Part shown: piece after piece, positions 54,629 to 54,909 of the stretch
Position numbering within the stretch: position 1 is the first letter of the stretch
How the letters are laid out: every line of letters begins with the position of its first letter
Sequence record: PV390658.1
DNA: 64,000 nucleotides
Direction: 5' to 3' (one strand)
Origin: Escherichia phage vB_EcoM_P54
Program-made: the position numbers and the translations under genes
The notes under the pieces: model-generated
What the model saw: the letters and a program-made list of their open reading frames with translations, nothing else
Told to the model about the DNA's origin: nothing
Database searches by the model: none

Positions 54629-54909
54629 TACCAGACCGTTGTTTATCATCTTAAGTGCTACCATTACACCAACTCGACATCTGCCGAGTGAAGGAATCGA
54701 ACCTTCGCCTTTTCTTTACCGAGAAATAGATTGTTTAAGTTTTGCTGTAAACGGTCTTCTGTAAATTTGTTGAGCCAGACCAAGTTTTAAATTTTTCAAA
54801 ATTAAATTGGCTTGAAATTTTAAGTAACTTGCTGTATTTGGTCTTCTGCTCCTTTAAAGGATACTCGTAAGAACCCTTTAAGGGAGGGGCTAAATAGCCC
54901 TCTCAAAAT

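Follow-up and report, generated by a model that had tools for sequence, protein, structure and literature searches.

The tRNA gene array of Escherichia phage vB_EcoM_P54 (PV390658.1), a Felix O1-like phage (Felixounavirus), contains four short elements, here called Ea, Eb, E1 and E2, that are very probably unannotated phage Y RNAs; E2 would be of the YrlA class and is the likely partner of a Ro60-like anti-defence protein encoded upstream of it. The window is the whole 64,000-nucleotide stretch of this DNA that was analysed, and all positions refer to it. The best reading of the E2 family is that of YrlA-like Y RNAs attached to the DUF2828 branch of Ro60-like proteins, and the case for it is computational, being built on the sequence, a covarying fold, a linkage of RNA and gene that recurs in different phages, and a modelled protein with the fold of Ro60.

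ARAGORN identifies 24 tRNA genes in the window, forming a minus-strand array (49839-55490) that is interrupted between tRNA-Tyr and tRNA-Lys(UUU) by a 426-nt gap (54484-54909). The first-pass annotation had placed an orphan tRNA 3' half in this gap, consisting of a perfect T arm and an acceptor strand with no 5' partner. The T arm GAAGG-TTCGATT-CCTTC is present on the minus strand, although it lies at 54690-54706 and not at 54689-54705, a shift of one base; it is followed by an acceptor 3' strand, ACTCGGC (54683-54689), with an A at the discriminator position, and the upstream side on that strand lacks a 5' acceptor strand, a D arm and an anticodon arm, as had been described. That search covered the upstream side only, however, and the complementary strand and a D arm are found immediately downstream in permuted order, so that this is indeed not a normal tRNA gene but is not an orphan half either. 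Nor had a complete cloverleaf been overlooked, as ARAGORN, run on the whole window, reports no tRNA or tmRNA (transfer-messenger RNA) within 54484-54909. With the Rfam tRNA model the alignment is confined to the T arm (14.9 bits, gathering score 29), and Rfam scans at E<=10 of 7.5 kb, 451 nt and 156 nt yielded this T arm and noise only. The T-arm match is not a chance one, because all 24 copies of GGTTCRANTCC in the 64-kb window are on the minus strand inside the tRNA array.

E2 is a circularly permuted tRNA look-alike whose acceptor end is closed by a loop and which has a terminal stem where a tRNA has its anticodon arm. It is composed of a bulged terminal stem, the motif UACAGCAA and a permuted tRNA-like domain, and reads from 5' to 3' as terminal stem 5' strand, UACAGCAA, short helix, V hairpin, T arm, acceptor hairpin, D arm and terminal stem 3' strand. 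Its parts are as follows:

54628-54764 (minus): E2, a YrlA-like Y RNA candidate of ~137 nt, from the minimum free energy (MFE) fold, covariance model (CM) matches and covariation.
54750-54764 (minus): terminal stem, 5' strand, with UAC (54761-54763), the bulge AGA (54758-54760) and AGACCGU of helix P1 (54751-54757).
54742-54749 (minus): single-stranded motif UACAGCAA, family consensus U-N-C-A-G-C-A-A.
54728-54731 and 54648-54651 (minus): P2, a short helix of AUCU with AGAU, from fold and covariation.
54726-54729 (minus): CUAU, the YUAY of YrlA, before the V hairpin.
54711-54726 (minus): V hairpin (variable-arm-like), UUUCU-CGGUAA-AGAAA, from fold and covariation.
54690-54706 (minus): T arm, GAAGG-UUCGAUU-CCUUC, with the partial Rfam tRNA match and the conserved GGUUCGAnUCC.
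54672-54689 (minus): AS, the closed acceptor hairpin ACUCGGC-AGAU-GUCGAGU of 7 bp, from complementarity and covariation.
54655-54669 (minus): canonical D arm, GUGU-AAUGGUA-GCAC, preceded by a UG linker (54670-54671).
54628-54640 (minus): terminal stem, 3' strand, with P1 ACGGUCU (54633-54639), the bulged G (54632) and GUA (54629-54631).

In AS, GTCGAGT (54672-54678) pairs with all seven bases of ACTCGGC, one pair being G-U, across a 4-nt AGAU loop (54679-54682). The suggestion of the first-pass annotation that a minihelix-like element might be present was near the mark, since the T arm and the closed acceptor hairpin together make a minihelix, although the whole element is larger. An unconstrained MFE fold of the 141-nt sequence gives the same multi-branched, cloverleaf-like structure, with terminal stem, V, T, AS and D. 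An anticodon-stem pairing in the window's MFE fold, CUUAA/UUAAG, was dropped, as it is not kept in Sf14 or SUSP1; the AUCU/AGAU helix has better support. Two covariance models were used for searching. R1, constructed from 11 Ounavirinae sequences, was run on 80 IMG/VR loci retrieved with the protein and on named phages; R2, to which remote sequences found by R1 were added, was run on 79 remote loci. Both match E2 at 54629-54764 (148 and 127 bits respectively).

The gap sequence matches 251 phage records, 183 of them over at least 80% of the query; most identities are 95-99%, with lower values of 80-88% in Mooglevirus and Suspvirus. None of the related phages has an intact tRNA at this position, where the first-pass annotation had thought to look for one; they hold the same permuted element. 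When 12 phages are aligned with plain MAFFT, neither the T arm nor the D arm varies, and the acceptor hairpin keeps its pairing over three different sequences: the window has ACUCGGC/GUCGAGU, Sf14, SUSP1 and others have ACACGU-UACG-GCGUGU, and Mordin and Mijalis have ACCCUUC-GCCAAACA-GAAGGGU. RNAalifold, applied to a plain MAFFT alignment, reports compensatory changes in 10 of 27 pairs. The same element is carried by the syntenic relatives L013 and L014, whose neighbouring protein is only 54-56% identical; their acceptor hairpins differ again and measure 5 and 8 bp, and the terminal stem is compensated (AGACUCU/AGAGUCU).

Wider CM-guided alignments of 20 and 29 sequences were compared with controls in which the pairing partners were slid. 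The cells are paired in 97.6% (20 sequences) and 94.4% (29 sequences) of cases, against 37-47% in the slid controls; double changes occur in 30/34 and 32/34 pairs, and the covariation scores are 0.59 and 0.65 respectively, against at most 0.095 in the controls. P1 is 99-100% paired with double changes in all seven pairs, and AS likewise has double changes in 7/7 pairs with 96% of cells paired (29-sequence alignment). In the V and P2 helices all four pairs have double changes, yet 82-89% of cells are paired. The T-stem pairs covary, with GGUUCGAnUCC kept across the family. Within U-N-C-A-G-C-A-A, the U, C, G, C and A do not vary among the 29 family members, 23 of which also have the A that stands between C and G; the bulged G of the 3' strand is found in 28 of the 29. 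A structure with compensatory changes in every helix thus spans a range from the Felix O1-like phages to a mycobacteriophage.

Three shorter paralogues of the bulged stem and motif are present in the array, and the tRNA-like domain is confined to E2:

54772-54851 (minus): E1, ~80 nt, sharing the bulged stem and ACAGCAA; repeat family D7.
55092-55157 (minus): Eb, ~66 nt, beginning 6 nt past tRNA-Met; R1 41.8 bits, R2 45.1 bits.
55246-55324 (minus): Ea, ~79 nt, between tRNA-Glu and tRNA-Met; R1 37.7 bits.

All four elements contain the U-N-C-A-G-C-A-A motif and GGTCTGG, and they fold alike, with an outer helix, a 3-nt AGA bulge on the 5' side opposite a single bulged G on the 3' side, a 7-bp helix (AGACCNN/NNGGUCU), and then single-stranded (U)NCAGCAA. 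The outer helices (3-4 bp) are compensatory among the paralogues (UGAC/GUCA, UUGC/GCAA, GAGC/GCUC and UUAC/GUAA). The 9-mer CAGAAGACC occurs in five exact copies in the window, four of them within the array, where 0.5 would be expected, and there are three spaced pairs of the form CAGAAGACC-N40-70-GGTCTGG against an expectation of 0, which with E2 make up the four units. Every relative examined for this module has all four elements. The Rfam model of Dictyostelium Class I RNA weakly matches Eb (55096-55149, 24 bits) and E1 (54776-54843, 15 bits) on the minus strand; those RNAs also have a short stem followed by ...ACAGCAA, a likeness that is probably coincidental.

The proposed protein partner is encoded on the same strand and its gene ends 892 nt upstream of E2:

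55656-57071 (minus): open reading frame (ORF) of 471 amino acids, Ro60-like, matching Pfam DUF2828 and DUF7788 and assigned by fold.

An AlphaFold2 model of this protein, made with 47 homologues, has a predicted local distance difference test score (pLDDT) of 89 and a predicted template modelling score (pTM) of 0.88. When it is compared with the Protein Data Bank (PDB) by Foldseek, the best 12 matches are all full-length Ro60/TROVE structures (E 3e-8 to 1e-6, template modelling scores 0.49-0.67), including Xenopus Ro60, D. radiodurans Rsr and the Ro60 of Thermus phage phiLo (2I91, 1YVR, 1YVP, 2NVO, 9KOP and 9L5Y), and isolated vWA domains rank below them at E>1e-3. As modelled, the protein has a full-length Ro60 fold, with a TROVE-like HEAT ring and a C-terminal vWA domain. 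The family is large, the matches numbering 709 among phage records and over 3,300 among database proteins, and a literature search on DUF2828 returned nothing relevant. The 471-residue ORF product is 98% identical to gp130 of phage Bas63, which has been reported to be Ro60-like and to counter the Ppl defence system; the authors of that study went no further than a guess that there might be Y RNAs among the tRNA genes (10.1101/2024.10.10.617714).

The RNA and the gene are also found together in remote phages. R1 gives full-length matches of 41-64 bits in IMG/VR contigs whose Ro-like protein is only 39-48% identical, and it matches the cluster-L mycobacteriophage Rumpelstiltskin 99 nt past a gene annotated as 'Ro-like RNA binding protein', with no tRNA within 4 kb. 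Klebsiella phage FBKp34 is matched as well, strongly and between the DUF2828 gene and the tRNA array (L096, 5681-5816). With R2 there are 37 matches at E<0.01 in the 79 remote loci, all of them on the strand of the gene and many 13-500 nt away from it. The strong matches do not overlap called tRNAs, as judged by ARAGORN at 13 loci and by the record annotation for FBKp34. Listeria phage WIL-1 has a weak RNA match only (30 bits), just upstream of its Ro-like gene, and neither R1 nor R2 gave anything convincing at the homologous locus of Vibrio phage XZ1.

Several other features of these remote loci were recorded. In WIL-1 (L098, 3959-9032) the Ro-like gene is 1.3 kb upstream of genes for an RtcB-type 'tRNA splicing ligase', an HD-domain protein and a NADAR protein, an RNA-repair context resembling the Salmonella rsr-yrlBA-rtcBA operon. 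A 114-nt annotated 'tRNA-Asp' in FBKp34 (L096, 6003-6145) overlaps a weak match to the Y RNA model (26.8 bits) and may be a mis-called tRNA-like element. One viral contig (L051, 1257-1707) has a permuted tmRNA with the tag ANTNFALAA, 3 kb upstream of the Ro-like gene, and the array of another related contig includes a tRNA with a CUA (amber-reading) anticodon (L090, 10588-10662).

YrlA RNAs (Y RNA-like A), which mimic tRNAs and are known from bacteria and some phages, have been defined as lying on the same strand as, and at most 4 kb from, a Ro60 gene, with a 5' GNCGAA(N)G, the proposed binding site of Rsr, and the domain order V-T-acceptor-like stem-loop-D (Chen et al. 2014, PMC4201824), and they have a conserved UA linker and an acceptor of variable length (bioRxiv 10.1101/312249, PDB 6CU1). 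E2 shares with them the succession of V, T arm, closed acceptor stem-loop and D arm inside a stem formed by the ends, the YUAY before V (CUAU in E2), the U-purine linker between AS and D (UG in E2, UA in many of its relatives), the variable length of AS, the conserved T and D loops, and a Ro60-type gene on the same strand within 4 kb. Both are also accompanied by shorter RNAs that have the same protein-binding module, a candidate one here: YrlB in the case of YrlA, and Ea, Eb and E1 in that of E2. E2 differs in the terminal stem, which has a conserved AGA bulge on its 5' side and a G bulge on its 3' side, in lying downstream of the gene within a phage tRNA array, and in having a partner candidate that by sequence is DUF2828/DUF7788 and not TROVE/vWA_Ro60; the YrlA class is further characterised by binding to a Ro60 orthologue and modification by TruB and DusA. 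R2 detects the tRNA-like domain of the YrlA of mycobacteriophage ET08 (34 bits, E 8e-6), which is 190 nt upstream of gp220, a gene matching both the TROVE and vWA_Ro60 Pfam families; the published ET08 RNAs carry GCCGAG/GCCGAAG. A second candidate pair in ET08, gp72 and a 'pseudo tRNA-Ser' as Ro and YrlA, was rejected, as gp72 has no Pfam match and R2 is blank in the first 50 kb.

A number of results weigh against the assignment of E2 to YrlA and of the protein to Ro60. The ET08 match stands for a shared architecture and not for proven common descent, because tandem-tRNA junctions can score as high, producing values of 30-41 bits. The sequence GNCGAA(N0-1)G was not found in the 5' part of E2, which has UNCAGCAA in the equivalent place, and the Rfam YrlA model (RF02553, gathering score 69 bits) has no match to E2 at E<=10 in the 451-nt and 156-nt stretches; that model is narrow, the published ET08 YrlA scoring 37.4 bits against the gathering score of 69. 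The expected Levitt pair (A15:U48 or G15:C48) is not obviously formed, A15 facing C or A as read from the alignment. The CM-guided alignments are biased towards the structure that was modelled, and the MAFFT-based results agree with their covariation in direction. Among the 79 remote loci only ~24 have a match at E<0.01, and the linkage to the gene is partly confounded with a linkage to tRNA arrays because most Ro-like genes are in or beside such arrays. The 471-residue protein matches DUF2828 and DUF7788 but neither TROVE (PF05731) nor vWA_Ro60 (PF25045) in Pfam, gives a BLASTP E value of 0.93 with the ET08 Ro60, and finds nothing in sequence searches of the PDB, either directly or with its profile; since the sequence searches gave no TROVE match, it is called Ro60-like by fold alone. 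E2 is moreover dispensable in some lineages, because it is deleted in one phage and absent from another relative: in Salmonella phage SP116 (L003, 701-940) a deletion fuses the E2 T arm to the T arm of tRNA-Lys(UUU), taking out the rest of E2, the element E3 and most of tRNA-Lys(UUU), and the metagenomic relative L012 (7130-7425) retains E1 and E3 without E2.

Four other explanations of E2 were weighed. The one that survives best, although it is improbable, is that E2 acts independently of Ro60 as a tRNA-like punctuation or processing element, the minihelix recruiting RNase P, RNase Z or the CCA-adding enzyme. The position of E2 inside the array at 2-12 nt from its neighbours, the tRNA-length acceptor stem of 7 bp in the window and the presence of tRNA arrays at most related loci are all in keeping with this, as is the YrlA of M. 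smegmatis, which also has a 7-bp stem and is cut by RNase P (PMC4201824). However, the hairpin is 6 bp with a UACG tetraloop in close relatives, 5-8 bp elsewhere, and missing in L054 and L030, and because it varies in this way or is absent a substrate of the RNase P type is not conserved. Such an element could do without the D arm, the V arm, the bulged terminal stem and UNCAGCAA, yet all of these are conserved, and the Rumpelstiltskin element is distant from any tRNA.

Permuted tRNA genes, as in Cyanidioschyzon merolae, and two-piece tmRNA genes encode the 3' half upstream of the 5' half, retain an anticodon arm or a domain that codes for the tag, and have a free CCA end once mature. E2 could be imagined to be of this kind, with RNase P opening the acceptor loop and CCA being added to give a chargeable tRNA-like molecule, and its permuted halves, 7-bp acceptor stem and discriminator-position A would suit that role. 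So would the lack of tRNA-Asp and tRNA-Trp in the window and the cleavage and CCA addition described for M. smegmatis YrlA (PMC4201824). E2 differs from those genes, however, in having neither an anticodon arm, in place of which stand the short helix and terminal stem, nor a tag domain, and in having its acceptor end as a closed loop in most relatives. Relatives that retain tRNA-Asp have the same element, and hairpins that are tetraloop-capped or absent cannot give a CCA end, making a chargeable product highly improbable.

The possibility raised by the first-pass annotation that E2 is a decayed tRNA, or one broken by rearrangement and left as non-functional debris beside an inverted repeat, deserves hardly any credence. 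No cloverleaf is predicted, and deletion through T arms does occur at this locus, as the SP116 junction shows, but seven helices are kept by compensatory substitutions across genera and phyla, the motif positions are invariant in 29/29 sequences, and the linkage to one protein family has been retained. The compensated stems of L013 and L014, together with their acceptor hairpins, exclude decay products and rearrangement debris.

Least credible of all is an acceptor piece of a permuted (two-piece) tmRNA, in which the T arm and 3' acceptor strand would likewise precede the 5' acceptor strand and which is present near the gene in the related contig L051. ARAGORN is able to detect permuted tmRNAs but reports none at this place, E2 is missed by the tmRNA and tmRNA_permuted models of Rfam, the stem has U2-G71 and C3-G70 in place of the G3-U70 alanine identity pair, and E2 has a true D arm but no tag reading frame or pseudoknot.

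Two further candidates were rejected. A permuted group I intron-exon arrangement found no support, as no Intron_gpI or other intron family matches at E<=10 in Rfam scans of 49000-56500 and 54470-54920, and no intron-like core is present. A coding gap was likewise discarded; the ORFs are of 25-41 amino acids, nearly all with TTG starts, and indels among relatives ignore the reading frame.

If E2 is taken to be a YrlA-like Y RNA, two known systems offer precedents for how it might work. In animal Y RNAs the feature that Ro60 recognises is a bulged helix; in the Yrl RNAs of phiLo, whose ribonucleoprotein (RNP) engages the host PNPase, it is a CGAA borne on a bulge (PMC12135203). The phiLo system has, as here, a phage-encoded Ro60-type ring protein and at least two adjacent Y-like RNAs, Yrl1 and Yrl2 (PMC12135203; PDB 9KOP, 9L5Y), which have a terminal stem and an internal bulge with the binding motif (PMC12135203); it differs in the CGAA motif itself, in the position of the RNAs upstream of a canonical Ro60 gene, in having no described tRNA mimicry, and in that binding has been demonstrated there and is inferred here. 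The Y RNAs of metazoans and Deinococcus, with their partners Ro60 and Rsr, similarly have an end-formed stem with a bulged helix recognised by the protein and a remainder that serves as effector or tether (PMC12135203, PMC4201824). Animal Y RNAs differ from the window elements in carrying GGUCCGA in the 5' strand, where the latter have AAGAC...GUCUG-G, and have no tRNA-like domain.

For the expression, processing, protein binding and effector of E2 we infer the following course. E2 would be co-transcribed with the phage tRNA array, for which sigma-70-like promoter candidates, recognised by consensus match alone, lie between the ORF and tRNA-Pro (55609-55637 and 55517-55546), and would be set free by the enzymes that trim the tRNAs on either side; this is the simplest route because the units of the array are 2-12 nt apart. 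The RNA is predicted to fold into an L-shaped tRNA mimic with the anticodon arm replaced by a putative protein-binding stem. By analogy, the Ro60-like ring may bind the bulged stem and the UNCAGCAA module that is common to the four RNAs, and we propose U-N-C-A-G-C-A-A as the recognition motif for the protein. The tRNA-like elbow could then serve as a tether or gate for a host factor that recognises tRNAs, after the model of the Ro60-Y RNA-PNPase complex; PNPase, known from Deinococcus, Salmonella and phiLo, would be the precedent for a factor recruited in this manner. The 7-bp acceptor stem in the window could also be an RNase P substrate, as that of M. smegmatis YrlA is, although the closed form is argued to be the functional one because relatives have tetraloop-capped or missing hairpins. 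It is possible, though doubtful, that the Ro60-like protein and the four RNAs form a phage anti-defence RNP in which the tRNA mimic is the working part, a decoy or adaptor for a host nuclease or defence factor that recognises tRNAs.

Other features lie in and around the array. Directly after E2 on the minus strand is a 147-nt element (54486-54630) with a perfect 24-bp closing stem, which the first-pass annotation had called an inverted-repeat element; it has a folding z-score of -5.5 and no match to an Rfam family, and in relatives it has two quite different interiors with the stem kept by compensation (GUAG/CUAC versus GCAG/CUGC). Two conserved hairpins are located between tRNA-Tyr and E1 (54855-54909, minus), the second of which (AAGGGUUCUUACGAGUAUCCUU) recurs at 84% identity at 50923-50947 (minus) as repeat family D11. 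In VpaE1, Bas63, Sf14, Sf17, Mordin, SUSP1 and others a tRNA-Asp(GTC) directly follows tRNA-Tyr (L001, 866-941); it is missing from the window, the difference being ~78 nt at about 54909/54910, and neither tRNA-Asp nor tRNA-Trp is called by ARAGORN in any part of the window. Two tRNA-like sequences on the minus strand were missed by ARAGORN. That at 53805-53883 scores 31.7 bits with the Rfam tRNA model, which exceeds the gathering score, and a 130-amino-acid ORF with a weak HNH match overlaps it; that at 53225-53299 has a CCA end and an acceptor stem of 7 bp, but its 'anticodon' loop is an unusual one of 9 nt (CCUCCAAAA). Several GenBank records have small 'hypothetical protein' coding sequences on the opposite strand over E2 and E3 (e.g. 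bas63_0137 and bas63_0138 of Bas63, MZ501086.1; L101, 2520-2794), and in view of the RNA covariation these annotations are probably spurious.

Particles made of Ro60 and Y RNA show conservation from bacteria to humans, and bacterial Y RNAs can carry a tRNA-like domain. Here such a mimic is present in well-studied and tractable phages of E. coli and Salmonella, including Felix O1 and the BASEL phage Bas63, where the presumed partner protein already has a phenotype, the countering of the Ppl defence. What is new is a set of four concrete, unannotated RNAs with coordinates and a conserved candidate binding module, and the proposed extension of the Y RNA partnership to a large family that has been filed as DUF2828 and not as Ro60. 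An anti-defence RNP of the type proposed, if real, would explain how Bas63 gp130 counters Ppl. On that same doubtful reading the DUF2828 clade together with the UNCAGCAA RNAs, spanning hundreds of phages of Proteobacteria, Firmicutes and Actinobacteria and lying nearly always by tRNA arrays, would constitute a second branch of the Ro-Y RNA system that had not been recognised before, and would preserve the proposed origin of Y RNAs from dimeric tRNA transcripts.

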